A DNA stretch of 64,000 bases, taken from NCBI GenBank assembly GCA_048938105.1, contig JBHLMN010000003.1:256001-320000 (forward strand), written 5' to 3'. Each line of letters opens with the position of its first letter. Within the stretch, counting starts at the first letter, position 1. Position numbers and translations under genes: made by a program. Shown here in pieces: positions 28,778-51,696 of the stretch. This DNA is from Promethearchaeota archaeon. Lineage in GTDB: Archaea; Asgardarchaeota; Heimdallarchaeia; Hodarchaeales; Hodarchaeaceae. Below the pieces are notes generated by a model. It did not search any database and was not told the DNA's origin. It worked only from the letters and a program-made list of their open reading frames with translations.

Positions 28778-29239
28778 ATGACCAAGCCGAAAGAGAAGAA
28801 AAAAAAATCTAAGAAAAAGGATTCTAAAAAGCTAATTGTAACTAAAAATGAATTCTTAAGATTACGGCCCGTTGTCAGCCCGTTTGTGCAGCAAAAGAGA
28901 AAAACAGACGAAGATCTGCTGTTAAAAATCGATTTACGTGAATTGAAAAAGAGAAGCCTCCTCAAAAGAATAGCTCCAACTCCTGATAGTAAAAAAATTC
29001 TTCTCGACAAATTAGGAAAAGATGTCTTTCTTTTATGTGATGGAAAGCACAAAGTCAAAGATATTATTAAAGAATTTCAGGCTAAATACCGCTTAACTCA
29101 GACGGAAACTGAAATTGCAGTCCAGAAGTATTTAATGAGTTTGACAGAACGTCATCTTATTGGATTTATGATACCTGAAGAAATTGTGAAGAATAAACAA
29201 TTATCTGGAGAGGCAATTGAAAAAGTTGTCATTGAATGA
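28778..29239 (+). CDS. PqqD-family / RiPP-recognition-element (RRE) domain protein
   Basis: ILLDKLGKDVFLLCDGKHKVKDIIKEF...YLMSLTERHLI matches the PqqD pattern LD-x-x-G-x-x-(V/I)W-x-x-CDG-x-x-TV-x-x-I. Confidence 0.78.
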   Translation: MTKPKEKKKKSKKKDSKKLIVTKNEFLRLRPVVSPFVQQKRKTDEDLLLKIDLRELKKRSLLKRIAPTPDSKKILLDKLGKDVFLLCDGKHKVKDIIKEFQAKYRLTQTETEIAVQKYLMSLTERHLIGFMIPEEIVKNKQLSGEAIEKVVIE

Positions 29240-29339
29240 ATCCAGATTTATCTTGAGAGACTGGTTTTGGATCATCTTTTATATAAAGGACAATAAATTT
29301 CCATTTTATTCCTCTTTAAATTAATAAGAAATAAATGAT

Positions 29340-32300
29340 GTGCAAATGATTCTGATTTCAAATCAATTTCGAAGAGTTCTTCTTTTTTGTCTATTAATCC
29401 TAACTATAACAATTATAGTAGACATTAAACTCATTAAAAGTCCTCCAGCTAATGATATCAAGAGGTTGACTAATAATTCTCCTTTGTTATCGTCTATTAA
29501 GGAACCAATATCAAATTCACGAGAACTTATAGACTTTAATTATTTTGGTGACCAAATTACTGCTAGATACTTCAACAATATTAAAAATCATATAGGCAAT
29601 TTTTCTGGTTTCGGAAGTCGTGTTACGGGTTATACGGGATATGAACAAGCAACTAATTATATCCAAAATTTCTTCATAAAACAAAATTTAACACAGGTAC
29701 AAACCCTTTCGTATCCTCTCCTAATTCCGTATGATCGTGAGACAAGAATTACTCTTAAGGGGGAAAATTTTACAGCTCATGCTTTTATACCTAATTCTGC
29801 TCATGCTTGCAAAATTCCCTCTAATGGTTTATCTGGTACTTTAATTTATGGTGGCTTGGGAGAATACGCAGATTTAGATGGCAAAAAGATTGAAGATTCA
29901 ATTGTAGTTCTTGAATTCAATACTTGGAGCAATTGGATCAATGTGGCAAGTCTTGGAGCTCAAGCTGTCATTTTCTTACCACCAAAAGAACCTGATCGCT
30001 TTGAAGCTGCAGAGAAATCCATCGATATCCCCCTTTTCTTCCCCCGAATTTATATTAATAACACAATCTCTGCTGAAACCATAAGAAAGCTAAGTAATGA
30101 TAGGAATCATACTATCACACTTTTTTCAGACGTAAAATGGGTGTACAGTGAAGCAAAAAATATCATGGGAATTTTACCTGGATTGGATGATGAAATCATA
30201 ATTATATCTGCACATTATGATTCTTTTTCTGTAGTTCCTGCTATTGCTCCTGGTGCAGATGAAGCTTGTGGTATTGCGACTTTACTTGAACTTGTTCGCG
30301 TCATGAGAGATGAAAATATCACCCCCCAAAAAACAATAATGTTTTTAGCCCTCTCTGGTCATAATCAGGCTGCAGCAGGAGCAAGGGAATTTGTCTATCA
30401 AAATTATGAAATTTTAAATGCCAAAAAAGGGATTAAACTTTTTCTATCCCTTGATCTTTCAGCATCAAATAATAAAATCGCAATTAATCCCTATGGGTCC
30501 CTTTATAAGTATAATCTTAGATTTACCTCTGGAAACAACCTTTACACGAGGTTAAGAAATATTGCTGAAGATTTTCTGAGTGAATATGCCTCAAATATTC
30601 GTAAGGCTACTGGTTATTTGTTTAATGTTGAATCATATGTTAATTTGCAATATTTTGATGATATCGTGTCAATGAGCCCCATTGGGGATCATGAACCATT
30701 TATTGCCTCGAATGTATTAGGATTATCGCTTTCTACTATAGAATCTGATCGTTTAGTTATTAACACCCCATTAGACCTGGTTAATTATCTTCAACTTGAT
30801 ATGCTTAAATCGCAAGTTGTATACTCAATTTGTGCTATAGTACAGTTAGTCAGTTCTGAGAAAAATCTCGGAGATTATCTTGATTTAGCTCATAGAGAAT
30901 TCTCGTTGAAATCCTCGACATTTGTTGGATTTGGTAATATTGAAGGTTATTGTAAAGAATATAATGAGACAACAGGACGGTTAACTAACGTAGCTAATAC
31001 TGTAATTCGGGTAACCTCACGTGACCCAACTACAGGTATCCAAGGAATATGTTCTTATTATACCAAAGCTGATAAAAATGGATATTATCAAGTAAGAGGA
31101 GTCTCTTCTTCACGCCCTGATAATCCTCTTGAATTCTCTGTAGAAGCTTACATTTTTGATTTTGAAGGGAAATTGATAGGAGCGAATAATTTAGGCTCAT
31201 ATGGCCAAGCTTTTAAAAGAACGAAGCAATTAATCAGTAAAGAAACAACAATTAATCCAATGATATTTAATTGTGGCACAATTAGTATTTTTGGAGTATC
31301 ACATCCTTATTTTCAATATTCTTCGGCAGAGTTTCTCAATTACAAAGTTCTACATCCTGAAACCCAGATACAGCATTTTTCACATGGTTATTTAAGTACA
31401 AAATCCGCTAGTCTCGTATTTGTCTCTCCAAATACACCAGCAATATTAATTGGAGAATTTCCAGACGGAGTACAAGGAGTTTATGCAACAAATTCTAGTA
31501 CAGATATATTACAGGGATGGGGATTTCAGGTTCAAGAAGGTGAATTCAAAAATCTAGGTTTTTCAGCATTCATTACTTCTGAAGATATTCTATCCTTAAC
31601 ACAAGCATACATTGACCTTTATAAATCCTATAGTATTTATAATGATCAAGTTGAAAGAACCTTCCAGAGAACATTAACACTTATTGAGTCTGCAATTCAT
31701 CTAAAACAAGAGTTTGGATATTCAAAAGCTATTGAAACAATAATTGAGGCTCGAACCTGTTCATATAGTGCCCTTAATCAAGCTAAAAACGAAATTATGG
31801 GAGCAATGTCAGCAGCGCTTCTTTTTGCCTTTTTATTCATTCCGTTTTCGTTTATATTGTCTCAGCTTCTTTTTAATTTTAATTCATGGGTTAAGCAGGT
31901 TCTTATAACATGTTCGATCTATTCCCTAACGTTTAGCATTTTCTACTTAATTCATCCAGGGTTTCAGATCGCTCCTCATCTTATTATTACCCTTATAGGC
32001 ATTATTAATGTTGTCTCTGTTCTCATTGTAGTTTATTTTTTCTCTCATGGAAGCCTTGATTTCCTTAGAAGACAGCGTACAAGAATGTTAGGTCCCCATT
32101 TTATGGACACAAGTTATACGTCAGCAATTTCTATTGCTTTTAAAACTGGGATCTCTAGAATGAAGAAACATAAATATCAAACAACTATCACTCTTTTAAG
32201 TATTTGTCTGTTAACTTTTGCATTAACTCTATTAACGTCTGCAAGTGCTCTTTTTAAGAATAATATTCTTGTTTTAGGATTACCTATTTTTATAGCAATA

Positions 32301-33098
32301 CTACTAATGATAAATACCTCAGTTACTGTTGTATACTCATCAAAGAGAGAGATTTCTATATTCACATCATTAGGGGTTACCCCAACCCATATTATATCCC
32401 TATTCTTAGTAGAATTTCTTGTATCTGCCATTATAGGATCTGTAATTGGTTATTTGGGAGGAGTAACTTTCATTAGAATAGTTTCAACAATTGGGCTTAT
32501 TCCAAAAACGTTACCCATCAATTATTCCTCTGGGGCTGTTGTTACTACTTTAGCTTTTAGCATGGTTGGAATGTTCTTGAGTATAATCTATCCACTAAAA
32601 ATATCTAGTCGAATGTCTGTACCCTCTCTTAAAAGAACCTGGGTATTGACTACAGTACCAGTAGAAGATGGAACAAAATGGAATATACCGTTACCAGTTG
32701 TTACGGCTAGTGAACAAGAAGCTGAAGGAATTATCGTATTTCTAATGGAATTTTTCGTAATATTCAAATCCGAGAGTGTGGGAGGCCCATTTTTTGTGAA
32801 TAATATTGATATAAAAAACTTCAAAGGAAAGGCAAAGCTTATAACTGCTACTGTTACTCTAGCGCCATTTGATATGGGAATAAAGCAAACTATGAAATTT
32901 TTCACCTTTTTTGATAGAAAACAAGATCATTGGACGTTTGAGATTGAATTAGTCCGCTTGGAGGGCGTATTAATAGCATGGGAAGCCTCAGTCAAACGAT
33001 TTATAGGCAATATTAGAAAGCAGTTACTTATTTGGAAAAGTCTCTCTGAAGAAGAGAAAGTAGTAAAGATTGAACGATTTCAACAAGAATTCTCATAA
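29340..33098 (+). CDS. PA + M28-peptidase-like ectodomain fused to an FtsX/MacB-type permease (paralog A)
   Basis: N-terminal TM/signal, GSRVTGY, PA domain (GTLIYGGLG...IVVLEFN), SAHYDS, GADEACG, GDHEPF. FtsX motif KREISIFTSLG...FLVEF. Soluble C-terminal domain. Confidence 0.8.
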   Translation: MQMILISNQFRRVLLFCLLILTITIIVDIKLIKSPPANDIKRLTNNSPLLSSIKEPISNSRELIDFNYFGDQITARYFNNIKNHIGNFSGFGSRVTGYTGYEQATNYIQNFFIKQNLTQVQTLSYPLLIPYDRETRITLKGENFTAHAFIPNSAHACKIPSNGLSGTLIYGGLGEYADLDGKKIEDSIVVLEFNTWSNWINVASLGAQAVIFLPPKEPDRFEAAEKSIDIPLFFPRIYINNTISAETIRKLSNDRNHTITLFSDVKWVYSEAKNIMGILPGLDDEIIIISAHYDSFSVVPAIAPGADEACGIATLLELVRVMRDENITPQKTIMFLALSGHNQAAAGAREFVYQNYEILNAKKGIKLFLSLDLSASNNKIAINPYGSLYKYNLRFTSGNNLYTRLRNIAEDFLSEYASNIRKATGYLFNVESYVNLQYFDDIVSMSPIGDHEPFIASNVLGLSLSTIESDRLVINTPLDLVNYLQLDMLKSQVVYSICAIVQLVSSEKNLGDYLDLAHREFSLKSSTFVGFGNIEGYCKEYNETTGRLTNVANTVIRVTSRDPTTGIQGICSYYTKADKNGYYQVRGVSSSRPDNPLEFSVEAYIFDFEGKLIGANNLGSYGQAFKRTKQLISKETTINPMIFNCGTISIFGVSHPYFQYSSAEFLNYKVLHPETQIQHFSHGYLSTKSASLVFVSPNTPAILIGEFPDGVQGVYATNSSTDILQGWGFQVQEGEFKNLGFSAFITSEDILSLTQAYIDLYKSYSIYNDQVERTFQRTLTLIESAIHLKQEFGYSKAIETIIEARTCSYSALNQAKNEIMGAMSAALLFAFLFIPFSFILSQLLFNFNSWVKQVLITCSIYSLTFSIFYLIHPGFQIAPHLIITLIGIINVVSVLIVVYFFSHGSLDFLRRQRTRMLGPHFMDTSYTSAISIAFKTGISRMKKHKYQTTITLLSICLLTFALTLLTSASALFKNNILVLGLPIFIAILLMINTSVTVVYSSKREISIFTSLGVTPTHIISLFLVEFLVSAIIGSVIGYLGGVTFIRIVSTIGLIPKTLPINYSSGAVVTTLAFSMVGMFLSIIYPLKISSRMSVPSLKRTWVLTTVPVEDGTKWNIPLPVVTASEQEAEGIIVFLMEFFVIFKSESVGGPFFVNNIDIKNFKGKAKLITATVTLAPFDMGIKQTMKFFTFFDRKQDHWTFEIELVRLEGVLIAWEASVKRFIGNIRKQLLIWKSLSEEEKVVKIERFQQEFS

Positions 33099-33144
33099 AT
33101 ATTTCATTAAATCCTTTGAATAATGAGTTAAAAATTAAAAGCAT

Positions 33145-34506
33145 GTGATTTATTTGGCTAACGAACCGAAGATTGTTGTAATTGGAGCAGGAAGTACAAA
33201 TTTTTGTTTTGTAACGTTAAAAGACATAGTAGAAGAGGAAAAACTTCAAAATGCAACGCTCTGTATGGTTGATACTAATGAGCGTAACTTAAATCTGGTT
33301 TCATCTTTGGCTAAGGTGCTAAAAACCCGCTATCAATCTAAAATAGAATTGATCGCTGATATGAATCGAGAAAAGGTATTAGAGGACGCTGATTTTGTGA
33401 TATTGTCCATTGGGGTTGATCGTGAGCAAACGTGGGAAACTGATTTCGAGATAGCAAAAAAATTTGATATTTGGCATTACGCAGAAAATGGCGGCCCAGG
33501 AGCTTTTGGTCATACAGCTAGAAACCTCGCTGTTGTTATGCCAATACTGTATGACATTCATGATTTGGCATCAAACACATGGCTAATAAATTTCACAAAT
33601 CCATTATCCAAAATTCACTACGCAGCAAAAGACTATGCAAAAGTGAATTGTGTAAGCTTTTGCCATCAGTACTGGTATGGCTTTTACATCTTGGGACACA
33701 TACTTACTGATGATTTAGGAATTTGTAAGGATGCAAATTTATCATATCTTGACTATCGAAACAAAGCTTTGAAGGAATATAACGTCTTAGCAGCAGGGTT
33801 GAATCACTTTACTTGGATGTTAGAGGTACGAAGAAAGTCAAATGGTGAAGATCTCTATCCATTAATCCGACAAAAAATAGACAAATTACCACCCACTTAT
33901 GAAGCTTTGACAAGGCATATTTTTAAAATATTTAAACTTCTCCCTGTTCCAGGTGAGACCCATCTTTCTGAATATCTTCCATATACTGCCCAAAAAGAAA
34001 ACTGGGAGAAATATAATCTTTATCCCTTCAATTTTGATGAAAATAGGCAAAATAAAGTCAAAAATTGGCAACTAATAAAAGAAATAATTGAGGGGAAACT
34101 CCAAGTTGAGATATTAAAGCCAGATCAGGCTGAAAGAATTGCAAATTTAATTACAGAAATATATACAGATGCTTCTGCCTTTGAACCTGCATTGAATATT
34201 GAAAATAATGGAGCAATAGCAAATCTACCGACGGATGCGGTAGTTGAAGTTCCATGTTTAGTGAATAAAAAGGGAGGCTTAGGTATCTGTGTCGGTAAAC
34301 TACCAGAAGCAATCGCAACTTTATGCAACAATGAAATTTCGATTGCAAAATTAATTACTAAAGCATCAGTTGAAGGAGATAAAGAAGCTGGGATTCAAGC
34401 ATTCGCATTAGATCCAATGATAAACGATCTTGATTTAGCAGAAAAGTTATTTCATGAATATTTAGAGACATTTAAGGATGTTCTCCCCCAATTTACCGAT
34501 TTGTGA
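33145..34506 (+). CDS. GH4 NAD+-dependent glycosidase (alpha-galactosidase/MelA-like)
   Basis: KIVVIGAGS, ENGGPG, NFTNP, FCH, GLNHFTW, N-x-x-N-x-GAI-x-NLP-x-x-AVVEVP, ALDP. Confidence 0.9.
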   Translation: MIYLANEPKIVVIGAGSTNFCFVTLKDIVEEEKLQNATLCMVDTNERNLNLVSSLAKVLKTRYQSKIELIADMNREKVLEDADFVILSIGVDREQTWETDFEIAKKFDIWHYAENGGPGAFGHTARNLAVVMPILYDIHDLASNTWLINFTNPLSKIHYAAKDYAKVNCVSFCHQYWYGFYILGHILTDDLGICKDANLSYLDYRNKALKEYNVLAAGLNHFTWMLEVRRKSNGEDLYPLIRQKIDKLPPTYEALTRHIFKIFKLLPVPGETHLSEYLPYTAQKENWEKYNLYPFNFDENRQNKVKNWQLIKEIIEGKLQVEILKPDQAERIANLITEIYTDASAFEPALNIENNGAIANLPTDAVVEVPCLVNKKGGLGICVGKLPEAIATLCNNEISIAKLITKASVEGDKEAGIQAFALDPMINDLDLAEKLFHEYLETFKDVLPQFTDL

Positions 34507-34529
34507 GTTATTACATTATTATTCAAATT

Positions 34530-35465
34530 TCATAAAGGTTCTCTCGAATCAGTTAAACATAAATTGACCAATTCATCTATTTTAGCAGTACCAACACACA
34601 TGACTTTATCAGCACCACCCCAGTATAATTTCAGAGTACCATCATCTTCAGGAACAGCCCCACAGGTAAAAACCACGTTATGTACATACCCAGTCACTTC
34701 CCAAGGATCTTCAGGCTGTAGAATCCATTGATCACCTACACCCAAAACTATAGCAGGATCATCCAACTTATGTAGAGCGACTCCTAAACGATAAACGGAT
34801 CCATCCATAGTAGGGAAAACTCCATGATAGATACTCAACCATCCTTCTTCTGTGCGGATTGGAGGAGCACCAGGACCGATTTTCATTTCATCCCAATGAT
34901 ACATAACTGGTTTCATTACAATACGGGAATCCCCCCAATACTTCAAATCAGAAGAGAAACTTATCCAAATCGACCAGGGACTAATATCTGAATGAGGTCT
35001 ATCTAATTTTACATATCTTCCATTGATCTTTTCAGGGAATAAAACAGTGTTCCGATAATCTGCTTGAGTAATAAAAGCGATCCTTTTTACTGACTCAAAA
35101 TCCTGAGTTTTTGCTAGCCCTATACGAACGCCATGTCTTGAATAAGCACTGTAAGTAATGTAATGAGTATCTTCTATGAAAGTGATGCGAGGATCTTCAA
35201 CTCCAAATTCCTCATATTCTTTGAAAATCCCGTTGTCAGCAGGGATCATAAAAGGTTCTTCTCTAGACGTAAAATTAAATCCATCTTGGCTCTCAGCAAT
35301 ACCAATGATGGACCTCCCATTTTTACGATGCGAGCGGAATAACATTATATATCTAGAATCATGTTTTACGACACCTGCATTATGCACTGTCTCAACAGCA
35401 TAGGGAATATCATTTACTGTTAATATTGGATTCTTTTCATAACGCTTTACAAAATCTCGTTTCAT
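34530..35465 (-). CDS. GH130 beta-mannoside phosphorylase (GH130_2-like)
   Basis: NPIL, HNAGV, GVEDPRIT, YRNTVLFPEKING, KIGPGAPP, YHGV, NVVFTCG, YWGGAD. Confidence 0.9.
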   Translation of the reverse strand: MKRDFVKRYEKNPILTVNDIPYAVETVHNAGVVKHDSRYIMLFRSHRKNGRSIIGIAESQDGFNFTSREEPFMIPADNGIFKEYEEFGVEDPRITFIEDTHYITYSAYSRHGVRIGLAKTQDFESVKRIAFITQADYRNTVLFPEKINGRYVKLDRPHSDISPWSIWISFSSDLKYWGDSRIVMKPVMYHWDEMKIGPGAPPIRTEEGWLSIYHGVFPTMDGSVYRLGVALHKLDDPAIVLGVGDQWILQPEDPWEVTGYVHNVVFTCGAVPEDDGTLKLYWGGADKVMCVGTAKIDELVNLCLTDSREPL

Positions 35466-35563: not shown

Positions 35564-36496
35564 TTAATTCGATCTAATTGTAAGTTTAACCATCTTTTCT
35601 ATCTTACTGCGTGTTTTTGTTGAAGGCTTATCTTTCATATAGAAAATTAAGCAATAAATATCATTCTTCTCTTGATTAGACCATAAATAAGTATCGAAAT
35701 ATTTCTTGCCAATTAGAGCTTTTTTCTTGGATCTTTGAATACTTCGCCAAACTACTATCTTTTTCTTGTAATAAAGTCTTTTGAATTCTACGGGAAGATA
35801 TCGCGATGGTATTCCTGGAAGATTTTCCTTATAGTACTCCCTGAACCATTTAGGCATCTCATCTGGATTGAAGATTTTTTGATCAGCTAATCCAATACGG
35901 TAAGCAAAGAGATCTAGTGTTTCATCTCTAAGATGGAGAAAAGTCAGTCCAATCAAGAACTCTCTTTTGATTAAGTTGCTATTTAGAAATGGAGTGTGGA
36001 TTTGGAGGTTTGGAGCTGACCAGATCGAGAATATACTCTCTGGATGGCAATTGATGTTTGCCATTATCTCCCTAATTCGAGGCTTTTCTTCCGATTTTTT
36101 TGATGTGAGAAACTGAGAAGTACAAATTATTAATCGTTCTGTTTTATTACAGATCCAAACCATTAAATAGCCTTGAACTTTTTCCTTTTCTAATTCCCAG
36201 TATATATATTTTGCATTATGTCCATTTATTTTCTGTGATCCTTCAGTTTTTCTTTTGATTTTTCTATATGACTTTTTTAACGATTTAAAATAATCCTCAA
36301 TAACTGTACTAATTTTGGGAGCTTTCTTGTCAAGCTTAGCCCAACTTAACTCCATTTTTTTTTCTTTAGAATCTCGAAAACCAAAATAACCAGTTTTTTC
36401 TTGAGACTTTTTCCTGTCTTTTTTTTCAAAAAACATAAACCAATTATTTGGAACTTTAACCAGAATATGCTGCCAACCAAGCGTCTGATATTTCAT
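35564..36496 (-). CDS. Basic soluble hypothetical protein (possible PsbP/Mog1/DcrB-like fold)
   Basis: 310-aa ORF. LGWQ-x4-VPNNW start, two similarly patterned halves, INGHNA segment. Confidence 0.7.
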   Translation of the reverse strand: MKYQTLGWQHILVKVPNNWFMFFEKKDRKKSQEKTGYFGFRDSKEKKMELSWAKLDKKAPKISTVIEDYFKSLKKSYRKIKRKTEGSQKINGHNAKYIYWELEKEKVQGYLMVWICNKTERLIICTSQFLTSKKSEEKPRIREIMANINCHPESIFSIWSAPNLQIHTPFLNSNLIKREFLIGLTFLHLRDETLDLFAYRIGLADQKIFNPDEMPKWFREYYKENLPGIPSRYLPVEFKRLYYKKKIVVWRSIQRSKKKALIGKKYFDTYLWSNQEKNDIYCLIFYMKDKPSTKTRSKIEKMVKLTIRSN

Positions 36497-36566: not shown

Positions 36567-37625
36567 TTGTATATGAAAGTAGCTCGGTTTGAAAGTCCTT
36601 TCAACATTAAAATAAGACAATGCAAAACTCCAACGATAGGAGATAATGATCTACTAATTAATGTAGCTTATTGTGGAATTTGTGGAACAGACATTCACAT
36701 TTATGAAGGTCAACTACCTTTTGTCACGTTCCCAATTGTTCCCGGACACGAATTTTCGGGAACAATAAAAGCTATGGGAGCCAAAGTATCTAATTTTGCG
36801 ATAGGAGAGAAAGTAACAGTCAATCCAAACCTCTCATGCAAAGATCATGGTTATAGTTTCGATGAGTATTGTTATTATTGCAAGAAAAATCGTCCTCATT
36901 TCTGTATTAATTGGGAGGCTATTGGAGTGACAAGGAACGGTGGTTTTTCGGAATTCGTTGTTTGTCCTAGCACTTCTGCATATAAAGTACCCCATAATGT
37001 ATCTCTATCAGAAGCAGCTTTTGTGGAACCAATAGCTTGTTGTTTACATGGTCTTCAAAAAGTAAATATAAATTCTGAAAACACAGTGTTGGTTATCGGG
37101 GCGGGACCAATTGGGTTATTGATGGTGTCCCTAATTAAATCATTATATTGCGCAAAAATCATCGTAAGTGAACCTAATCATTCTCGTAGACGTCTGGCAA
37201 CCCAACTTGGTGCAGATATTACGGTTGATCCAACAGATGAAGTCTTAGAAGATGTAGTAAAAAGAGAAACAGAGAATTTTGGGGTCGATGTGTCGATAGA
37301 GGCAGTTGGATTGACAAAAACCTCACTTGAAGCAATAAAATGTTTAAACAAATGTGGAAAAGCTTTATTATTCGGTGTTTCAAAACATGGAGACACAATT
37401 AAGTTAAATCTCTTTGAATTGTACAGTAAAGAGCTATCGTTATATGGTAGTTTTACCAATCCATATGAAAACGACAAGGCTCTTAAAATTCTAGAGAATA
37501 AGGCAATTCCAGTTTCAACATTAATTTCACACACGCTTCCAATTGATAAGTTGGAAGAAGGACTAAATTTAATAAAAAACAAAACACTAGACGCGAAAAA
37601 GATACTTATACGGATTAAAGAATAA
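36567..37625 (+). CDS. Zn-dependent (MDR) sugar/polyol dehydrogenase
   Basis: CGICGTD, PGHEFSG, structural Zn Cys cluster, GAGPIG. ATG 36573 after GAGGT is the likely start. Confidence 0.9.
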   Translation: MYMKVARFESPFNIKIRQCKTPTIGDNDLLINVAYCGICGTDIHIYEGQLPFVTFPIVPGHEFSGTIKAMGAKVSNFAIGEKVTVNPNLSCKDHGYSFDEYCYYCKKNRPHFCINWEAIGVTRNGGFSEFVVCPSTSAYKVPHNVSLSEAAFVEPIACCLHGLQKVNINSENTVLVIGAGPIGLLMVSLIKSLYCAKIIVSEPNHSRRRLATQLGADITVDPTDEVLEDVVKRETENFGVDVSIEAVGLTKTSLEAIKCLNKCGKALLFGVSKHGDTIKLNLFELYSKELSLYGSFTNPYENDKALKILENKAIPVSTLISHTLPIDKLEEGLNLIKNKTLDAKKILIRIKE

Positions 37626-37706: not shown

Positions 37707-38069
37707 CTGACAGATCAGGTAATCCAATGTCCCTGTGGGCAATTTATAGAAGATTATAGTCAATATCAATTACTTTATCTTAAGAAGGAGATGGAAGAGA
37801 TTGATATTCTCTGCCCAAACGATTTTTGTTATCTTAGAGAACTCGGATTCTTAAAATTTTCAATTGATAATTCGGGACACATAAAATTAAATATAGGCCG
37901 ATTTTACGCACCATATGTAACTTGGAATGCCACACGGATGTCAGAAGAGACGATAGTCAAAACATTAAAACAACATCTTATTGAGATCACTGAGAAACAT
38001 GTTTCTTGGGAAAAAGTGAAAGAAGACTTTCTAAAGAAAAAGACTAAACAAACTTCAAAGGAGGCTTGA
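37707..38069 (+). CDS. Small 4-Cys (CPC...CPNDFC) putative Zn-binding protein, probable CTG start
   Basis: The reading frame extends 28 codons upstream of ATG 37791 (LTDQVIQCPCGQ...) to stop TAA 37701-37703. CTG 37707 lies 6 nt after AAGGTG. Confidence 0.7.
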   Translation: MTDQVIQCPCGQFIEDYSQYQLLYLKKEMEEIDILCPNDFCYLRELGFLKFSIDNSGHIKLNIGRFYAPYVTWNATRMSEETIVKTLKQHLIEITEKHVSWEKVKEDFLKKKTKQTSKEA

Positions 38070-38674
38070 AATTGAGTCTAGATCTGCCTGAACCCGAATT
38101 TCCATTCTTGGATGTTTTGTATCTATCGTTTTCTAATATCCGGCGAAGATTTTTCCGTTCTATTATCACTGCTTTAGGAGTAATTCTAGGAATTGCGTTT
38201 ATGGCAGCTCTTCTTACTAACTCTCTTACATTAGGGTTAATGGAAGAAGAATCTGAAGTAGAAGCCTACCAATACTGGTTAGTCGGAATATCATTAGTAG
38301 TTTGTTTTGGTGGTATAACTAATAGCATGTTGATGGCAGTTAATGAGAGAGTTAAAGAAATAGGCGTATATAAATGTATTGGAGGGTTGGATACTCATAT
38401 AATACGATTATTCATTGTAGAAGCTCTTCTTCTGGGCATTCTAGGAGGATCTATAGGAGGCATTGTGGGTATAAGCATAGGAATAGCTATAAACCTTAAT
38501 CGTTTTACTTGGGATCAAATATCCTCTGTTCTATTGCTAAACAGTTTTTCACTTGTTCTTTTGTTTGTTTTTTGTTTAGGAATCTCAATGGTTTTAACAG
38601 CACTAGCAACATACCTTCCAGCTCGAAGAGCAGCGAATTTATCCCCAGCAGAAGCCTTAAGATATGAAAATTGA
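38066..38674 (+). CDS. Small FtsX-like ABC permease (4 TM, no ectodomain)
   Basis: RSIITALGVILGIA, NSMLMAVNERVKEIGVYKCIG, FIVEALLLG, YLPARRAANLSPAEALRYE. Confidence 0.9.
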   Translation: MKLSLDLPEPEFPFLDVLYLSFSNIRRRFFRSIITALGVILGIAFMAALLTNSLTLGLMEEESEVEAYQYWLVGISLVVCFGGITNSMLMAVNERVKEIGVYKCIGGLDTHIIRLFIVEALLLGILGGSIGGIVGISIGIAINLNRFTWDQISSVLLLNSFSLVLLFVFCLGISMVLTALATYLPARRAANLSPAEALRYEN

Positions 38675-39412: not shown

Positions 39413-39413
39413 A

Positions 39414-40160
39414 GTGGTGATACAGATGGCAGAGGAAATTACTATAAGATTGGAGGATGTCTGGAAGACATACATCATAGGAACTGAGGAAGTCAATGCG
39501 TTACAGGGTGTTTCATTAGATATTCCCCAAGGTGAATTTCACGTAATTATGGGGCCTTCTGGATCAGGGAAAACTACGTTTCTAAACATGGTTGGAGCGT
39601 TAGATGTTCCCTCAAAAGGAGAAGTTTATTTTGAGAATGTTCCACTTTCGAGTTTAAATAAAAAACAATTAGCATCATTACGATCGTATAAAATTGGTTT
39701 TATTTTCCAAACTTTTAATCTTGTACCAGTCATAACTGCTCTTGAAAATGTTCAACTACCATTAATATTTCAGAAATATCCGAGAGAGGAAAGAAGAAAA
39801 AGAGCAGAAGAAATACTCAAACGAGTCGGCTTGGGTGATCGAATGCAACATACACCAGATGAACTTTCTGGTGGACAACAACAACGTGTGGCAATAGCAC
39901 GAGCTTTAGCGGGAGAGCCAAGCCTTATCCTCGCTGATGAACCTACAGGTAATTTGGACCTATCGACTGGTTTTCACATTGTAGAATTGTTGAGAGAATT
40001 AAGTCAAGAAACTGGTATCACTGTAATTAATAGTACACACGACTTAAAGCTTATCGATATCGCTGATAGAATTTCTTGGTTAAGAGATGGGGAAATTACT
40101 CGAACTCAAAAACGATTAGATGTCTTTATCACTGAAGACGATGTACATATACCCCAATAA
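39414..40160 (+). CDS. ABC ATP-binding protein, LolD/MacB-type (second copy)
   Basis: [47 protein letters not shown]. Confidence 0.93.
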
Positions 40161-43096: not shown

Positions 43097-45280
43097 GTGA
43101 TTCGAATGTGTCCAGAAACTGAAGAAAATGAGGAGTTAGACAAGGTACGTTCAGGACTCACGGTTAGATCATTGATAATTAGCTTGAGTATTTTACTTCT
43201 TTGGGGTTTAATGAGTATATTCAGTGCAAATTTTGGTGAAGCACCTGATATTTTTATTGAAGAAATGTCAATCTTATTTCCATTCTTTCTATTAATTTTT
43301 GGACTTCAAGCTCTTGAAAGGATTCGAATCAGAGGATTAAAACTTACTCGACAAGAATTGACTTTTATCTGGGCTATGCTGGTTGTTGGTATCCCTATTA
43401 CTGCGGGTGGATTTCTTGCAGGTAGGTTGTTATTGAATGCAATGTATCCTTTAAGAGGTGAACCCCCACCTCCCACTGATTGGGCTCCTCCTTTTTGGGG
43501 ACCAACTTCATCGACTGAATATTATAGATCGTTTGAAGGGGGAGGATTCCCTGATTACAGTCAATGGTTAATTCCATTACTTTTCTGGGGAATTACTAGT
43601 ATCGCTTGGGCATTTATGTGTCTTTTCTTAATTCAAATTTTTAGAAAACCTTGGGTAGACGTTGAGAGACTTGCATTTCCACTAGCTCAACCAGTTCTGG
43701 AACTATTGGAAGCACCACTAGCTCAACCTGATGAGAAAAGAAAACGTTATGTTTTTCTTGCAATAGGCGCCTTGATTGCAATATTTTGGTCTTCTCTTGA
43801 GTTTCTACGAGTTGTTTACCCAGACTGGGGTGATATTTTCAAAGATGTAGATATATTCGGGATAGTACCAGGCAAAGCATGGAATATAAAGATTGATTTT
43901 GGCGAGGTGTTTGGGTTAAGCGCCTTTTTACCCAATGCATATCTTTTAGCTCGACCTGAGCCAGCGATGGTCGCAGCTTTTCTCCTAGTCTCATTAAATG
44001 TTTTACTTTCTGCATTGGTCTTTTATCTATTATTTTGGGTTTTAATCCCAGTTTTTGAGACTGAAATTGGTTTGATTGCACCTCCAACAGGAGCAGTTGC
44101 ATCTATCCCAGATATTGACCTAGGATTTGCACGAGTCGGGGGAATATCTCTTTTTACATTTGGAGAATTTGGGATGCTTTTTGGAGTGGCTATTTGGGCA
44201 ATTATTTTACAAAGAAGGTATCTATGGCGATCAATTAAAGCAATCTGGGATCCAAGTATAATTGATGAAAGTGGAGAGCCAATACCTTATAGAACTGCTT
44301 GGATTGGTATGATAGTGTGTGCTATAATTTTCTTGGGGAGTTTATTAATAAGTGGTGCACACATAATAGGAGGAATTTATGCAGTAATCTTTCTAATGAT
44401 AGGTTACATAGCAGGCGCTAGACTTAGAGCAGAAACAGCAGGTATGGGCATTGGACACCCTGGATATTTACATCTCCACGCGCAGCATACAATTAGAGTA
44501 ATTATAGGAGTAGATGACGAGGGAAAGCCACTGGACCCGAAAGGATTTTATATTACGGCAATGTGGGTTCAATTCTTCCAAAGAGATTCAGCACCAGCAT
44601 CACCAGCAGTATCCTCATTAGAATCATACAATATTGCTAGAGTAACCAAAACTCGTGCACGAGACATATTTATTAGCCATTCTATTGGTATAATCTCAAT
44701 AATTTTGTTATGTTTAATAGTGTGGCCAATCTTTACTTATTATTATGGGCTTGAAAATGAGTGGTCAGCAGAAGATGTTGCTGGAGCCTACTTTCATTAC
44801 ACTGACCAAGCATATGCCCTAGCTCGGGGTAGTTTTTGGGATCACCAAAGTTATGACATTAATATATGGGGACAAGCAATAATGGGAATGGTTTTTGCTA
44901 TTGGATTGAATATACTTCGATTATCAAGGCCATGGCTGCCTCTAAATCCTGTAGCTGCACCTATACTTTTAAGTCTTAGAGGTGGATATTGGTGGTTTCC
45001 GATATTAATTGCCTATCTTATTAAATATACAACAGTAAGAATCGGTGGAACTAAAGCTTACACTTCATATCTCTTACCTGCGGCTGTAGGGTACCTAATT
45101 GGTACAGCTGGTATATGGGGATATACTCTAGTGGCAATAATGATTCCTGCACTCTTTCCAGGACTGTTATTTGATCCGCTAATTGAATTTATTTACTATT
45201 ATGGCATTATTTTATTAGTTTGGTTCATATCAATAGTCGCAATTATTCTTTTCATAATTCGGGGTATAATCAGAAGATGA
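43097..45280 (+). CDS. Polytopic membrane protein, OPT-superfamily-like (recalled as DUF6785/DUF6784-type)
   Basis: About 15 or more TMs. GLTVRSLII, LTRQEL, RKPWVDVERLAFPLAQ, RLRAETAG, WLPLNP, RIGG. Confidence 0.7.
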   Translation: MIRMCPETEENEELDKVRSGLTVRSLIISLSILLLWGLMSIFSANFGEAPDIFIEEMSILFPFFLLIFGLQALERIRIRGLKLTRQELTFIWAMLVVGIPITAGGFLAGRLLLNAMYPLRGEPPPPTDWAPPFWGPTSSTEYYRSFEGGGFPDYSQWLIPLLFWGITSIAWAFMCLFLIQIFRKPWVDVERLAFPLAQPVLELLEAPLAQPDEKRKRYVFLAIGALIAIFWSSLEFLRVVYPDWGDIFKDVDIFGIVPGKAWNIKIDFGEVFGLSAFLPNAYLLARPEPAMVAAFLLVSLNVLLSALVFYLLFWVLIPVFETEIGLIAPPTGAVASIPDIDLGFARVGGISLFTFGEFGMLFGVAIWAIILQRRYLWRSIKAIWDPSIIDESGEPIPYRTAWIGMIVCAIIFLGSLLISGAHIIGGIYAVIFLMIGYIAGARLRAETAGMGIGHPGYLHLHAQHTIRVIIGVDDEGKPLDPKGFYITAMWVQFFQRDSAPASPAVSSLESYNIARVTKTRARDIFISHSIGIISIILLCLIVWPIFTYYYGLENEWSAEDVAGAYFHYTDQAYALARGSFWDHQSYDINIWGQAIMGMVFAIGLNILRLSRPWLPLNPVAAPILLSLRGGYWWFPILIAYLIKYTTVRIGGTKAYTSYLLPAAVGYLIGTAGIWGYTLVAIMIPALFPGLLFDPLIEFIYYYGIILLVWFISIVAIILFIIRGIIRR

Positions 45281-45298
45281 ATCATAAGGTGTACAGCA

Positions 45299-48200
45299 AT
45301 GAGACAAATTAAGATACTCATCTTTTTTTTTTTCCTTCATTCTAATCTCTACTACTTTATTTACACTGTATAATACTGGAATCACACACCGAATCGACTC
45401 TGAAAATCAAATAGCTAAGCTCACAAGTGTTTCACCATCAAATAGCAACATATTAACAAGTATCAATGATTTTCCAGGATTCAAGCAATTAAGTGAGCAA
45501 ATTAATGAAACATACTTTGATAATATTCTGAGTCATATCCATAATTTTTCTAGTTTTGGGAGCCGTGTTACAGGGTATTCTGGGTATAAGCAATCTATTA
45601 ACTATATTCAGAATTTCTTTATTAGTCAAGGTTTGGTAAACGTATCTACCATTCCATACTCCCTATTAGTTCCGTTAGATCTTGGTACAAAGATAGAAAT
45701 CAATGGACAAAATTATACAGCACATAGTTTCACACCAAATTCTGTTCACGCATGTAAAATTCCCTCTACTGGATTATCTGGGAGCTTAATCTATGGAGGA
45801 TTAGGTTCCTATTCGGAAATGGATCGTAAAATAATAGATGGCTCAATTGTTGTGCTTGAATTTAACTCTCAAGATAATTGGATAAAAGCAGCCAGTTTAG
45901 GAGCAAAAGGAGTCATTTTCTTACCACCAAATAACACTGATCGATTTGAAGCTGAAGTTAAATCCATCGATATTCCCCTCAATTTTCCCCGTATTTATAT
46001 TAATGATACTACGACAGCAAAGATCATCAAACAGATAAGTAAGCAAACAAACCAAATGGCCACCATATATTCCAACATAGAGTGGACTTTAGTTTATGCA
46101 GAGAATGTAATGGGGTTATTACCTGGTTTGGATGATGATATCATAATTATTTCTGCTCATTTTGATTCATCTTCTGTAGTTCCAGCTGTTGCCCCTGGGG
46201 CTGACGAAGCTTGTGGTATTGCTACATTGTTTGAACTTATTCGTATTATGAAAGACAATAACATTGTTCCGCAAAAAACAATCATGTTTTTGGCACTTTC
46301 TGGTCATAATCAAGCAGCAGCAGGAGCAAGGGAATTTGTCTATCAGAATTATAAATTATTGAATGTTGATTCTGGAATTAAACTCTTCATTTCTCTAGAT
46401 CTCTCTGTTACAAATAATAAAATTGGAATAAATCCATATGGTTATTTATACCAGTTTAAATTGCAATATACTACTGTAAATCGGTTGATTGAACGTATTC
46501 AAGATGTAGGTGAGGGCTTTCTACAGAGTTATTCAACAACTATTCAAGAGGAAACAGGATTTTCTTTTGAAGTGAAATCTTACTGCAACAGACAAGAGTT
46601 TAAAGATATCGCTCCAATAACTTTTCTAGGTGATCAAGAGCCATTTGTTGCTTCGAATGTGATAGGACTCTCTCTGTTTACTACGGAATCACATCGATTA
46701 CGATTCAATACTCCCATTGATTTCCCTAAATATACACAATCAGAAAAAGAACATCTAAAATCCCAGGTTATCTACTCTATATGCGCATTATCTAAGTTAG
46801 TTATTGAAGAGGCCCTTGGTGAGAAGCTTGATCTTCAAAATAAAGATTTTTCGTTAAGACATGGCAGTCATGTTGGTTTTGGAATCATTGAAGGTCATTG
46901 TAAAGAATATAATGAAACCATAGCATGGCTTACGAATGTTCCTAATGCACTTATTCGTGTGAGATCGCGTAACCTCAGGGATGATACCTATGGGGAATAT
47001 TCATACATTACGAAAGCTGATGACGAAGGATTTTATCAGGTCAGAGGGGTCTCTTCATCTCAACCTGATTATCCACTACAATTTGTTGTGGAAGCTTTTG
47101 TATTTGATTCTAAAGGCCAATTAATCAAATCAATTAATCTTGGCCCACGAGGGCAGTACTTTAGAAGTGCAAATCGACTCACTAGTCGAACAATAACGAT
47201 CAACCCCACTGTCTTTGATTGCGGTACAGTCACATTTTTTGAAGTTCTTCACCCTTATACCCAAGTGGCTTCAGCTGAATTATTGAACTACCAGATTATA
47301 GATCCAGATACTCGAACCCCTTTCTTTTCATACGGTTATACAGGTTTGAGATCAGTTAGTTTAGTATTTCTCGCACCTAATACCTCATCTGTTATGGTAG
47401 GCCGATTTCCTGATGGTGTCATCGGGATTTATGCAACAAATTCTAGTGTAGACACATTACGAGGAAATGGATACAAAGTCAAAGGAGGCGAAACCAAAAA
47501 TCTTGGAATATCAGCTTATACTACTGCTCGAGATTTCCAATCTATGACAAAAACCTACATAGACTTGTATACATCATATAATATATACGATGCTTTAGCT
47601 GATGATGCTTATTCAAGAGCAAATAGCCTCATAAAAACAGCAAATGACTTGAAAAACAATTTAAAATATTCAGAGTCAATCGTTTTAATCAAAGAAGTAC
47701 AAACATGGTCATATGATGCATTTAAGCAAGCTAGAAAAGTTATTGAAGATGGGACTTCTACTACAATATTTTTTGCTATTCTACTTATCCCATTTGCCTT
47801 TGCTTTATCCTCCTTACTTTTTAATTTTGAAAGTGGTATTAAACGTATTTCGGCTGCTAGTATTATATATGGAATAACCTTTGGTTTTTTCTACCTAATA
47901 CATCCTGGGATGCATCTTTCAAAGAATATAGCAATTATAATTCTAGGAGTGATTGCTTTAATTTTCGTTTTTCCTGCATTGTACATGATATATCAAGAAG
48001 GATATGACTTTTTAAAGAGTCTACGCATTAAATTAGTAGGAGCTCATTTTGTTGACACTTCTCGGACATCCACTATCCTTATTGCTATGAGTACAGGTAT
48101 TTCAAGGATGAAGAAACGAAAAGGAAGAACAATTATTGCTCTTTCAGGTATAGTCCTCATAACCTTCTCATTAACTCTCTTTACATCTGCAAGCACTCAA

Positions 48201-49766
48201 GTAGGCGTCTATTCCAGTGGAATAAACAGAGAAACTCCTTATAATGGAGTTTATTTTAGAACGAAAGATTGGAATTCCCCGCTTTCAAATCAATTACTTG
48301 AAACTCTCGAAGTTCAAAATGGTAATATTTCCATGATTTCTTCGCGATGGTGGCTCTATCCTACTTCAGATGAACCAAATGGATACGTTAATATCGCATC
48401 TACAAAGAGTGACCTTAATTGGCAAGGATCAGCTATATTAGGATTAACCCCTGAAGAACCCAATTTTCAACCCATCATACCAATACTTTCAGCTGGAAGA
48501 TGGTTTAATAATTCAAACAATATGGAATGCATTCTCTTTGACTCCATAAGTGATAAATTGGATGTCTCCATTAATGACACAGTAAGTTGGACTGGGATTG
48601 AGTTCAAGGTTATAGGTATAATTGATGCCAATGAATTTGATAAGCTCAAAGATTTTGATGACGAGGAAATAACACCAAAAAACAATCTTGTACCTTCTCC
48701 TAGTGCTCACTTACGAGCAGATGAAACCTTCATTCTTCCAGCGCAAACTGCTAAGTCATTTGGTGCAGCACTGTATTCAATTTCCATTTTAATAGATCAT
48801 TCAGCAGCTTTAGAACTCGCAGACACGACTTCTACTACTTATGGCCGGTTTCTGGAGATTAGAGTAGGTTACGAAAATGAAGTATCTTTACATAGAAGAA
48901 TAACTCAAAGCCTCGGTCAAGGATTTGTTGAATTAGGAATTCCTTTGGGTATCGCAGTCCTCCTCATGATAAATACTTCAATAAGTACTGTCTATGAATC
49001 AAGGAAAGAAATAAATACGTTTACTTCATTAGGTTTAGCTCCATTCCACATCGCTGGTCTTTTCCTAGCAGAATTTTTAGTCTACGCAATAATTGGTTCT
49101 GTAATCGGATATTTAGGTGGTATTACTTCTGCTGTTGTACTTTCAGCTTTAGGAATATTTCCTGAATCATTAGCAATTAATTACTCCTCTGGATCCGTAG
49201 TAAATGCATTAAGTTTTGGAATTATTGGTATTCTTCTTAGTACGGTATATCCTCTTAGAATTTCTGCGAAAATGTCAGTTCCTTCTGTAAGGAGAGCATG
49301 GGAGCTTACAACATCTCCTGAGGAGAGCGGAGAGAACTGGAATATTCCTCTCCCATTTGTTGCAAGCACAGAACAGGAATCTGAAGGTATCCTTGAGTTT
49401 TTAAGGGAATTCTTTGAAATTTATGAATCTGAAAGCGTTGGCGGGACTTTCTTTGCTCAAAATATCACTTTAAAAGAAACAAACGTTGAAAGAAAAGAAA
49501 AACACCTATCAGCAGTGGTAACCCTTGCTCCATTTGACATGGGATTAAAACAGACTTTTGACTTATTTACGTATCTTGATGAGATCAAATATAGATGGGT
49601 CTTCGAGATTAATCTTAAACGTTTAGAGGGAATATTATCAGCTTGGGAAACATCAGTCAGACGCTTTATCGATAGTATTCGAAAGCAACTACTTATTTGG
49701 AGAAATCTTTCCAAAGATGAGAAGGCATTAAAGGCTGAACAATATAGATCAAAATCAGTAAAATAA
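45299..49766 (+). CDS. PA + M28-peptidase-like/FtsX permease fusion (paralog B); reading frame broken by one extra T in a T11 tract
   Basis: AAGGTG SD and ATG 45299. With T10 in place of T11 (45323-45333) it reads MRQIKILIFFFSFILISTTLFTLY...FGSRVTGY and joins the 45633-49766 ORF (1488 aa), colinear with paralog A. Confidence 0.78.
45323..45333 (+). repeat. T11 homopolymer in the signal-peptide coding region
   Basis: ATC-TTTTTTTTTTT-CCTTC is the site of the apparent frameshift. Confidence 0.85.
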
Positions 49767-49782
49767 TAGTGAGGAAATAGGC

Positions 49783-51696
49783 ATGGTAGGTGACAATGAT
49801 AGCCCTAATAGCAATTCTGAGGAGATTATATCAACAGAAGAATATAGCTCTGGATTAACATGGCGAGTTGGCCTCGCAATCGTTTATTCAGCTATAATAA
49901 TTCAACCAGCTGCAATATATTTGTACTTCATTACCACAAATTGGTGGTACATTGGAGCGATAAGTACTACAACTATTGTTCTTTTTGCTGTACTTGCTAA
50001 ATACTCTGATAATCCCCTGTCAAAGCAAGAAGTCTTTATCATGATCAATGTTACAACAACGGCTGCGGGTATGGAGGCAATTGTCGCGTTAGTCTATAAT
50101 TATTATCTAAAGCATCATCCTATCACTCAGTCAACAATAATAAACGGTTCAAGATTAACCGATTTAATTCCTGATTGGTTTGCACCAGATTTTTTTGGTC
50201 CAATTCAAACGTTATTTGTCCCTGTATTCATCCTCCCTCTTGCTTTAATAATACTAAGTGCATTTTTAGCCAAAGCTACAGACATTTCACTAGGTATAAT
50301 ATTCAATTATCTCTATACTAAAGTCGAAGTTTTGCCATTTCCAACTGCAGAAGTAGAAGCAGAGAGAGCAAAGAGCCTCACATGGGAAGATAAGAGAAAA
50401 TTACAGGTTTTCTCAATAAGCGCTTTTATCGCAAGTATAATTGGATTTATTCTATACTTTTTTCCACTAGTTTTTGGATTTACGATTATTCCAATTCCTT
50501 GGTTTGACTTTAACCAAGCAATTGAAGGAATTCTACCAGGTGGATCCTTTGGAATTGCAGTAGATCTTATCTACTTTGGATTCGGTTTTATATTGCCTAT
50601 GCATATCGTGATTAGTATTTTAATAGGTTCCATCTTTATTAGTCTAATTGGAAATCCATTACTAGTAGCTACGGGCAATTTTCCACGATGGGAAAAAGGT
50701 TTATCTCTTATTGACACCTTTAATTATTCTCAACTTGATTTTTGGCTTCCATGGGGTATTTCTTTCTTAATTTGTGCCTCATTAATCCCAGTCTTGCGTA
50801 ATCCAAGAATATTTGTTAGAACGTTAAAAGATCTAAGAAAATTGAGCCAGGGAAAAGGAGAAGAGATTGAGGAAGGGTCTCCTCGGTTGAGTATTTTACT
50901 TAGTTTCTTCCTTCTCGGTACAATTGGTTCTGTCGTAATTGCAGTTTTACTCGTTCCTGATCTTTCTTTACAATTCATAATTATTTTACTTATTCTGACT
51001 GTTGGATGGAGTTTTTTTGGTTCCCTAGCAATGGCTTATGCACTTGGAATAACTGCAAATCTCCCGAATATACTCTACATTAAAGAATCAGCGTTTGTTT
51101 TTGCTAATGCTCCAGTAGGTGGAGCCATTTGGTTTGTCCCCTCATTAGTTATATCACAAGGAGGAGCTAGTTGGGTTGCAACATTTAAAACCTCTGATTT
51201 AACGTTTACAAAACGGGGAAGCTTAATTAAGGCACACATTGGAGCCTCACTTGTAGCTTGGTTTGTAGGCATATTTTGGGTTTCTGCTCTTTTATCAGTC
51301 GCTCAAGTACCCTCTGTCATCTTTCCTGTCCCATTTTGGCCTTTAGATGTAGGAAGAACAATTGCTTTCGTTTCAAATCCCTCAGTAGTTCTCAATCCTG
51401 TTGTTTTAGGTGTTGTCTTTATTATAACCCTAATCCTTTATCTAATTGAATGGTTTACACCTATACCTATATCCGTCATATCTATAGCAGTAGGTACAAC
51501 CAATCTGTATGCAATTCCGTATGCATTTACAACTTTCTTAGGAGCCTTAGTTGCAAGATTACTGAAAAACAGAATGGAATATTGGGAAACCGATCGTGCA
51601 ATAATAGTGGCTGGTTTTGGAACTGGACTAGGGATTGTTATCTCATTAGCCACATTCATATCATTAATTATGAATACTATCGCCTTACCCTATTAA
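49783..51696 (+). CDS. OPT/YSL-superfamily-like oligopeptide transporter
   Basis: About 15 or more TMs. GLTWRVGLA, LSKQE, VEVLPFPTAEV (OPT-like LxFP), GFILP, AGFGTG. GAGG SD. Confidence 0.72.
   Translation: MVGDNDSPNSNSEEIISTEEYSSGLTWRVGLAIVYSAIIIQPAAIYLYFITTNWWYIGAISTTTIVLFAVLAKYSDNPLSKQEVFIMINVTTTAAGMEAIVALVYNYYLKHHPITQSTIINGSRLTDLIPDWFAPDFFGPIQTLFVPVFILPLALIILSAFLAKATDISLGIIFNYLYTKVEVLPFPTAEVEAERAKSLTWEDKRKLQVFSISAFIASIIGFILYFFPLVFGFTIIPIPWFDFNQAIEGILPGGSFGIAVDLIYFGFGFILPMHIVISILIGSIFISLIGNPLLVATGNFPRWEKGLSLIDTFNYSQLDFWLPWGISFLICASLIPVLRNPRIFVRTLKDLRKLSQGKGEEIEEGSPRLSILLSFFLLGTIGSVVIAVLLVPDLSLQFIIILLILTVGWSFFGSLAMAYALGITANLPNILYIKESAFVFANAPVGGAIWFVPSLVISQGGASWVATFKTSDLTFTKRGSLIKAHIGASLVAWFVGIFWVSALLSVAQVPSVIFPVPFWPLDVGRTIAFVSNPSVVLNPVVLGVVFIITLILYLIEWFTPIPISVISIAVGTTNLYAIPYAFTTFLGALVARLLKNRMEYWETDRAIIVAGFGTGLGIVISLATFISLIMNTIALPY

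Follow-up and report, generated by a model that had tools for sequence, protein, structure and literature searches.

The locus and the closest described systems

Type VII ATP-binding cassette (ABC) systems such as LolCDE, MacB, HrtBA, FtsEX, YbbAP and BceAB pair LolD/MacB-type ATPases with membrane subunits of the FtsX fold, which have four transmembrane (TM) helices, an extracellular domain between TM1 and TM2, and a coupling helix. These motors have no pore and require two coupling helices. Barley YS1 (PDB 7wst), of the OPT/YSL permeases, is a homodimeric proton-coupled elevator importer (PMC9691689). In a 64,000-nucleotide stretch from a Candidatus Hodarchaeales archaeon, hereafter the window (GCA_048938105.1, contig JBHLMN010000003.1, positions 256,001 to 320,000, our C14:256001-320000; metagenome-assembled genome [MAG] of 5.85 Mb, 99% complete), relatives of both are encoded together, and they form part of a real, conserved and undescribed multi-gene membrane system. 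The parts each belong to or resemble known families. The system consists of a variable triad, namely two OPT-like permeases (OPT1 and OPT2) and an M28/FtsX fusion protein, plus a motor/adaptor set that is nearly always present in single copy. A 2008 genome paper on Thermofilum pendens by Anderson reportedly may mention similar gene sets. The literature searched contained no description of the combination and did not mention DUF6785, a brief earlier mention being possible, and portions of PMC4158269, PMC6965361, PMC12542729 and PMC2678158 describe no such system.

An earlier reading made from the letters of the window, here called the sequence-only reading, had taken 23 kb of it for one membrane machine. 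All the genes that it named were found in place with labels backed by Pfam, and the gaps of 18 bp and 16 bp that it gave on either side of fusion B were correct. Its gene set was incomplete, in that two conserved members (the 310-aa and 226-aa proteins) had been overlooked, and its description of the parts as interleaved with glycosidases was overstated, as just one glycoside hydrolase (GH) of family GH4 and one of GH130 are recognisable as glycosidases inside that span. The features are as follows.

28778..29239, plus: PqqD/RRE-like cytoplasmic protein, one of the adaptors present in single copy; scores 29.3 bits against PF05402, above cut-off
29340..33098, plus: fusion A, a PA/M28 pseudo-peptidase with an 8-TM FtsX part lacking the MacB extracellular domain; accessory orphan subfamily
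33145..34506, plus: GH4 glycosidase, alpha-galactosidase-like; accessory
34530..35465, minus: GH130 mannoside phosphorylase family; accessory
35564..36496, minus: 310-aa cytoplasmic protein; core, with a PsbP/DcrB-like fold as a lead
36567..37625, plus: Zn-dependent dehydrogenase, sugar/polyol-type; accessory, in 4 of 7 relatives
37707..38069, plus: 4-Cys protein (CxC...Cx4C, probable metal site); archaeal motor-set member with a probable CTG start
38066..38674, plus: small 4-TM FtsX without extracellular domain, probably supplying the second of the motor's membrane subunits
38678..39412, plus: ATPase 1, LolD/MacB type; motifs intact, 85-89% identity in relatives
39414..40160, plus: ATPase 2, LolD/MacB type; motifs intact, 82-89% identity in relatives
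40270..40449, plus: 59-aa two-TM peptide, conserved solely in the cluster of its own genus and not in the second copy of the host genome
40457..42853, minus: 798-aa cytoplasmic protein; possible (alpha/alpha)6-barrel glycosidase, a lead only
43097..45280, plus: OPT1, OPT-fold permease (DUF6785 and DUF6784); triad member
45299..49766, plus: fusion B, frameshifted near its start; triad member
45323..45333, plus: T11 tract in signal-anchor codons; candidate phase-variation or slippage site
49783..51696, plus: OPT2, YS1/OPT-fold permease; triad member
51707..52387, minus: 226-aa cytoplasmic protein that could be placed in no known family; retained next to the triad in each of the two copies
52692..56791, plus: a pair of exported proteins anchored at the C-terminus, of 748 aa and 521 aa, the shorter having a Thr-rich linker and a PGF-type tail

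Fusion B is composed, in order, of a signal anchor, a PA/M28 pseudo-peptidase ectodomain, three TM helices, a MacB-type unit (TM1, extracellular domain, TM2-4) and a conserved cytoplasmic C-terminal domain. Pfam matched PF02687 and PF12704 in it, and the top structural matches of its C-terminal half were MacB, LolC/E of LolCDE, and HrtB; the C-terminal domain itself gave middling matches to KA1, Bet v1/START and Aha1 (Z about 8). Fusion A is fusion B less about 240 residues, the MacB extracellular domain, and shares with the small FtsX an FtsX fold without a TM1-TM2 extracellular domain. In the M28 domain the catalytic Glu pair and the last zinc His were lost in all 37 aligned fusions; the Glu-Glu pair was mostly replaced by His plus Asn, His, Phe, Trp or Tyr, the first zinc His was often Tyr, and the canonical catalytic motif occurred in none of 121 fusions. 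An active M28 peptidase was rejected on the absence of the Glu-Glu motif and of the full set of five zinc ligands, and the same losses make plausible the receptor role suggested earlier for this ectodomain. The fusions match Nicastrin weakly in Pfam, and nicastrin and the transferrin receptor likewise have a PA plus M28 fold devoid of catalytic residues; in contrast to these, the domain is here fused to an ABC permease and bears no sign of ancestry to the eukaryotic proteins. Planctomycete fusions (L171, L173, L174) reach 2,800-3,000 aa.

The coupling helix (TM2-TM3) was conserved in the aligned fusions and the small FtsX. Fusion B has a single such helix, conserved throughout, for which its other three-helix bundle offers only a short loop in the corresponding position; given that a type VII motor needs two, the small FtsX is likely the second membrane subunit beside the fusion. 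Walker A, signature, Walker B and H-loop, as read from the sequence, are all intact in both ATPases, whose best NCBIfam matches, under the equivalog cut-offs, were LolD and MacB and which scored higher as LolD than as EcfA. Compared with the type VII systems, with which it shares these ATPases, the coupling helix, the FtsX fold, the extracellular domain between TM1 and TM2 (in fusion B) and a membrane part that would be heterodimeric as in LolCDE, the present system has two different ATPases, one partner lacking an extracellular domain, a fusion that adds a pseudo-peptidase ectodomain of ~800 aa, four TM helices and a C-terminal domain in the cytoplasm, permeases of the OPT fold in fixed linkage, many fusions for each motor, and no MacA, TolC or LolA partner.

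The 4-Cys protein is real, but its gene cannot start at its first ATG (37791); that version drops two of the four Cys, all of which are retained in 29 of 29 homologues, and the start must lie upstream, probably at CTG 37707, which sits behind AGGTG. In Thermoprotei (L108:9467-9841 of G026; L109) the 4-Cys gene heads the ribosomal protein L24-S4e-L5-S8-SecY operon, which suggests that it is expressed constitutively there. The PqqD-like gene was found in the second copy of the host genome, in relatives, in 14 of 18 distant archaeal MAGs and in bacterial operons, often beside the 310-aa gene. The 310-aa family was likewise present in the second copy and in bacterial operons, and its Atlas clusters come from Thermoproteota, Bathyarchaeia, Poribacteria and Armatimonadota. 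No kinship was detectable among the 226-aa, 310-aa and 4-Cys proteins or between them and the C-terminal domain of the fusion. A ribosomally synthesised and post-translationally modified peptide (RiPP) cluster was rejected, as neither a precursor peptide nor a modifying enzyme is conserved by the PqqD-like gene in the window, the relatives or the 14 distant loci.

The two OPT-like proteins proved to be true paralogues with the elevator-transporter fold of YS1. They are homologous over 522 columns (hhalign probability 97.7), and the OPT2 model (predicted local distance difference test, pLDDT, 91.3) matches barley YS1 over its length (Foldseek E 1.5e-10, TM 0.69), a likeness found by fold search; PDB sequences searched with the OPT2 profile gave no match. 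OPT2 scored 12.3 bits against PF03169, below the curated cut-off of 25.8, and OPT1 matched DUF6785/DUF6784 and not PF03169 above cut-off; the analysis gives DUF6785/DUF6784 a fold and a context. Since YS1 is a homodimeric elevator importer, the simplest guess is that OPT1 and OPT2 form a heterodimer. They have in common with the OPT/YSL proteins the whole-chain fold and an expected dimer-forming elevator architecture, and differ from them in their 15% identity, in sub-cut-off Pfam scores, in the occurrence of two divergent paralogues per locus instead of a homodimer, and in being always tied to an FtsX fusion. Modelled as a complex, OPT2 and the two membrane bundles of fusion B scored 0.02, a result that carries no weight either way. 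The OPT2 family comprises 930 clusters at 50% identity, and in a quick, unrooted tree both copies of the host genome fell in separate groups amid Bathyarchaeia/Thermoprotei paralogues. Some bacterial OPT2 proteins have inserts of 200-400 residues.

Distribution of the motor and triad genes

Co-occurrence of the parts in neighbourhood and presence comparisons was strongly supported by a second copy, relatives, distant archaea and bacteria. The second full copy lies in the same genome (C49:152275-170199; L002) and puts the gene set far beyond chance. It comprises the PqqD-like, 4-Cys, 310-aa and 226-aa genes, both ATPases, the small FtsX, one fusion, both OPT-like genes and a further 991-aa FtsX lacking an M28 domain. 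Its OPT2 is about 30% identical to that of the window, its OPT1 carries about 200 additional N-terminal membrane residues, and its flanks are large anchored surface proteins, not recognisable glycosidases.

Seven relatives of the same genus keep the order PqqD-like, 310-aa, (dehydrogenase), 4-Cys, small FtsX, two ATPases, (TM peptide), followed by 798-aa, OPT1, fusion B, OPT2 and 226-aa, and six of the seven close it with the two anchored surface proteins. GH4, GH130 and fusion A are missing at this position in all seven. The fusion A subfamily (~1250 aa) occurs in 8 other genomes of the genus, mostly solitary at unrelated loci free of OPT genes; fusion A is thus a conserved subfamily, and the idea that it is a recent broken duplicate of fusion B was rejected. 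Genes for 4-Cys and OPT2 are both present in the same 13 of 21 genus genomes and both absent from the same 8, which, as these genomes are kin, is a pattern and not a statistic. The family of the 748-aa protein also flanks one Bathyarchaeia triad, and the 226-aa protein likewise stands beside one.

In Bathyarchaeia, Thermoprotei and related archaea a fusion gene adjoined OPT2 at 26 of 26 loci, mostly together with OPT1, and no motor gene lay within 10 kb of any of them. Eighteen MAGs of Bathyarchaeia/Thermoprotei type gave 102 OPT2 matches (2-19 per MAG), while among the same MAGs the small FtsX was single-copy in 13, the 310-aa gene in 15 and the matching PqqD type in 14, and 4-Cys was present in 14, as one copy each apart from two in one MAG. 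The motor/adaptor genes of these MAGs are scattered amid housekeeping genes, with the PqqD-like and 310-aa genes adjacent or near each other in six. Among bacteria, at least 590 GTDB stretches encode OPT2 relatives, from Latescibacterota, Planctomycetota, Armatimonadota, Abditibacteriota, Gemmatimonadota and Ratteibacteria; a fusion was detected by OPT2 at 65 of 80 bacterial loci, 8 of which also carry at least two of the 310-aa, PqqD-like and small FtsX genes.

The sequence-only reading, in which the 23 kb encoded a single fixed machine that had two fusions, therefore needs to be recast as a fixed motor set with exchangeable triads, of which fusion B is a member, though frameshifted here, and fusion A an accessory orphan. 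These copy numbers fit the pattern of the Group II energy-coupling factor (ECF) transporters and of the shared sugar ATPases MsmK/MsmX, in which a single energising module with two ATPases serves many scattered substrate modules, although physical sharing is here inferred. The present system differs from Group II ECF in having FtsX and OPT folds in place of an S-component or EcfT fold, LolD-type ATPases, and substrate modules of ~2,800 residues.

An Asgard-wide feature was rejected, as true OPT2 and 4-Cys were confined essentially to one genus among the 120 Asgard genomes sampled. Given this patchiness, the system has no direct bearing on eukaryote origins.

Proposed uptake mechanism, cargo and competing readings

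We propose, giving the idea an even chance, that triads for capture and import, mostly of glycans, share a type VII ABC motor that energises them. Outside the cell the fusion would bind a large solute with its dead M28 ectodomain, in the manner of nicastrin and the transferrin receptor. With its single coupling helix the fusion would pair with the small FtsX and the two ATPases into a LolCDE-like heterodimeric motor, as its anatomy suggests. As type VII motors are poreless, ATP-driven movement would pass the solute to the adjacent OPT1/OPT2 heterodimer, which would carry it inward by a YS1-type elevator motion. One motor/adaptor set, made up of the small FtsX, the ATPases and the 4-Cys, PqqD-like and 310-aa proteins, would serve many substrate-specific triads, like the ECF module with its S components, and the cargo would vary by triad. 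Fusion A may be an extra receptor that borrows both motor and permeases, and changes in the length of its poly-T tract probably switch fusion B on and off, the main allele here being out of frame.

The proposed cargo draws on the neighbouring genes. Association of homologous clusters with carbohydrate genes, which the sequence-only reading had expected, was common, but such genes are not universal neighbours. Near the cluster lie GH4, three GH130, GH20 and the possible (alpha/alpha)6 glycosidase of 798 aa; the latter is syntenic in 7 relatives and also stands beside two distant triads, and among its Atlas neighbours are clusters that carry GH127 (30-34% of members). Three distant triads likewise have GH4 at their flanks. 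In a set of 151 genes neighbouring distant archaeal triads, Pfam matched GH4, GH42, GH2, GH10, GH130, NamZ and sulfatases, and also xylose-isomerase-like and Gfo/Idh/MocA enzymes; TrmB occurs among triad neighbours as well, and one bacterial locus carries GH95, a deacetylase and a lyase-like gene. For this locus, mannose- or galactose-containing oligosaccharides or glycoconjugates are the most likely cargo, glycans being the best guess here and not a family-wide rule. The likeness to SusCD and polysaccharide utilisation loci (many paralogous receptor and transporter sets by glycosidases, with the energy module encoded elsewhere) is an analogy of function only, since this is a cytoplasmic-membrane system with no beta-barrel, SusD or TonB; among the proteins scanned, Pfam matched no TonB-dependent barrel and no SusD lipoprotein. 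Carbohydrate genes continue downstream (59126-63991; C14:322839-323732): one more GH130, a 623-aa protein paralogous to that of 798 aa, GH20 and the third GH130.

Several observations weigh against this proposal. The PqqD-like and 310-aa proteins have no assigned role in it. Many triad neighbours are parts of corrinoid methyltransferases (URO-D-type, B12-binding, MttB) or housekeeping genes. A divergent variant in 5 genus genomes (L041, L042, L089, L090 and L091, in G002, G008, G006, G017 and G001, respectively), comprising the 4-Cys and small FtsX genes, a pair of ATPases, a single OPT-like gene and an FtsX of 579 aa, lies amid four TldD/PmbA genes, CbiX and two soluble M28 peptidases, surroundings which suggest a peptide-handling version. 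Three MAGs (G027, G035 and G030, with 11, 6 and 5 OPT2 copies) contain neither motor/adaptor genes nor ATPase orthologues; the marker genes SecY, PheS and RpoB were all found in them, and either real loss or assembly gaps may account for the absence. To our knowledge, known OPT/YSL proteins require no ATP and no characterised type VII system imports solutes.

A bolder form of the proposal is tentative and rather improbable as a whole: the system would be a primary importer of a new class, with a single type VII ABC motor mechanically driving many exchangeable elevator heterodimers of the OPT fold by way of pseudo-peptidase receptors. Bathyarchaeia, some Thermoprotei, Hodarchaeales and several uncultured bacterial phyla would take up polymers mainly by this route, and the Hodarchaeales receptor would be subject to poly-T phase variation. 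If the parts do work together, a poreless ATP motor and an ion-driven elevator permease, two principles thought separate, would be joined, and abundant sediment archaea and bacteria without SusCD would have a candidate answer to how polymer fragments are taken up.

It is possible, though doubtful, that the OPT pair instead draws on an ion gradient for import and is served by the fusion as a tethered binding protein, like that of tripartite ATP-independent periplasmic (TRAP) transporters, while the motor resets or releases the receptor or senses flux like BceAB. YS1 alone is a proton-coupled importer (PMC9691689), triads in other archaea are almost always encoded apart from motor genes, and the three motor-less MAGs do have triads. 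However, the coupling helix is kept in every fusion, including one from a motor-less MAG, the presence of motor and triad matches exactly in the 21 genus genomes, and the cluster has no linked sensor kinase, all of which speak against this reading.

The same architecture with peptides, glycopeptides or metal/corrinoid chelates as its chief cargo, in place of sugars, is unlikely. OPT/YSL proteins carry peptides and metal chelates, and M28 and RRE folds bind peptides; the variant amid TldD/PmbA, CbiX and soluble M28 peptidases, the frequent methyltransferase neighbours and an oligopeptidase F gene 3 kb upstream of the cluster point the same way. Against this, glycosidases and sugar-acid enzymes flank many archaeal and bacterial triads, the three GH130, GH4 and GH20 lie nearby on this contig, and the peptidase-linked variant has no M28-FtsX fusion and a single OPT.

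Quite unlikely, too, is an export or surface-assembly machine, in which the PqqD-like and 310-aa proteins would recognise a cytoplasmic peptide or protein that the OPT pair exports and the motor releases or places. Type VII systems do export or extract, the best structural matches were MacB, LolCDE and HrtBA, RREs bind precursor peptides, and anchored surface proteins flank the cluster; yet no conserved precursor peptide or modifying enzyme lies nearby, characterised OPT-fold proteins import, and the presence of as many as 19 divergent triads in a genome, next to catabolic enzymes, suits uptake better.

The poly-T tract of fusion B and remaining features of the window

Fusion B had been read from ATG 45299, but that frame stops at 45373 and the long frame lies one base off, at a T11 run 25 bases past this ATG. 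All 18 fusion-B orthologues read have T8-T13 in their signal-anchor Phe codons. The frame state could be judged for 17 of them: 7 lack an in-frame start ahead of the anchor (the window, L033, L050, L271, L323, L324 and L326, with both frame offsets seen), 2 are ambiguous and 8 are in frame. Fusion A, the fusion of the second copy and other archaeal fusions have at most 9 T, mostly at most 7. A Logan contig (run SRR30758825) is identical to the window over 11,146 bp including the T11, although it may share the same reads, and contigs show the main allele alone. In L271 and L326 the T tract follows a run of A9-A11, so that a stretch of 40 bases contains two slippery runs; the related protein P0201 reads through in frame.

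Runs of at least 9 are avoided in many prokaryotic coding regions and slip in replication or transcription (PMC1088944). The tract is a candidate phase-variation switch of fusion B; replicative phase variation would fit better than a fixed transcriptional slip, because in-frame and both out-of-frame states coexist among orthologues, though either is possible. Phase-variable nutrient receptors with homopolymer tracts are known in the Neisseria proteins HmbR and HpuA, and switchable expression, being typical of surface nutrient receptors, lends indirect support to a receptor role of the fusion. As in those genes, a long mononucleotide run lies at the 5' end of the receptor gene and is in and out of frame among relatives; here, in contrast, the run is poly-T, the host is a free-living archaeon, and switching within the population is only a candidate. 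If the conserved homopolymer does turn this surface receptor on and off, a free-living Asgard archaeon would have a contingency locus of a kind that is rare in archaea. It is highly improbable that neutral decay or an error in sequencing accounts for the frameshift and that the neighbours in this cluster came together partly by chance: homopolymers are error-prone, Phe runs in AT-rich genomes yield T runs, and fusion A, GH4 and GH130 are a local insertion, but the T11 was reproduced by a second assembler, just 10 T/A runs of at least 11 occur on the large contigs of the genome (one within an intact open reading frame [ORF]), T10 or longer is found in the first 150 bases of 0 of 575 signal-anchor ORFs of the host (intact ORFs only), the adjoining genes are intact in the same genomes, and the core genes co-occur across two domains.

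No Rfam match was found in the window, where promoter and terminator scans remained at chance level. The anchored 748-aa and 521-aa proteins, which lie outside the span of the sequence-only reading, are possible surface binding partners. Two exported proteins with Thr/Ser-rich linkers and C-terminal anchors, the 521-aa protein (plus) and one of 656 aa (minus), are encoded at 55226-58877; neither has a Pfam or PDB match, and the former has short direct repeats in its Thr-rich coding stretch. Upstream, a 1029-aa helical-repeat protein (25658-28747) with a C-terminal zinc ribbon and RING-like domain (weak zf-RING_2 match) is eukaryote-like and unconnected to the cluster, and a protein with an Arf-family small GTPase domain is encoded at 21080-21985.

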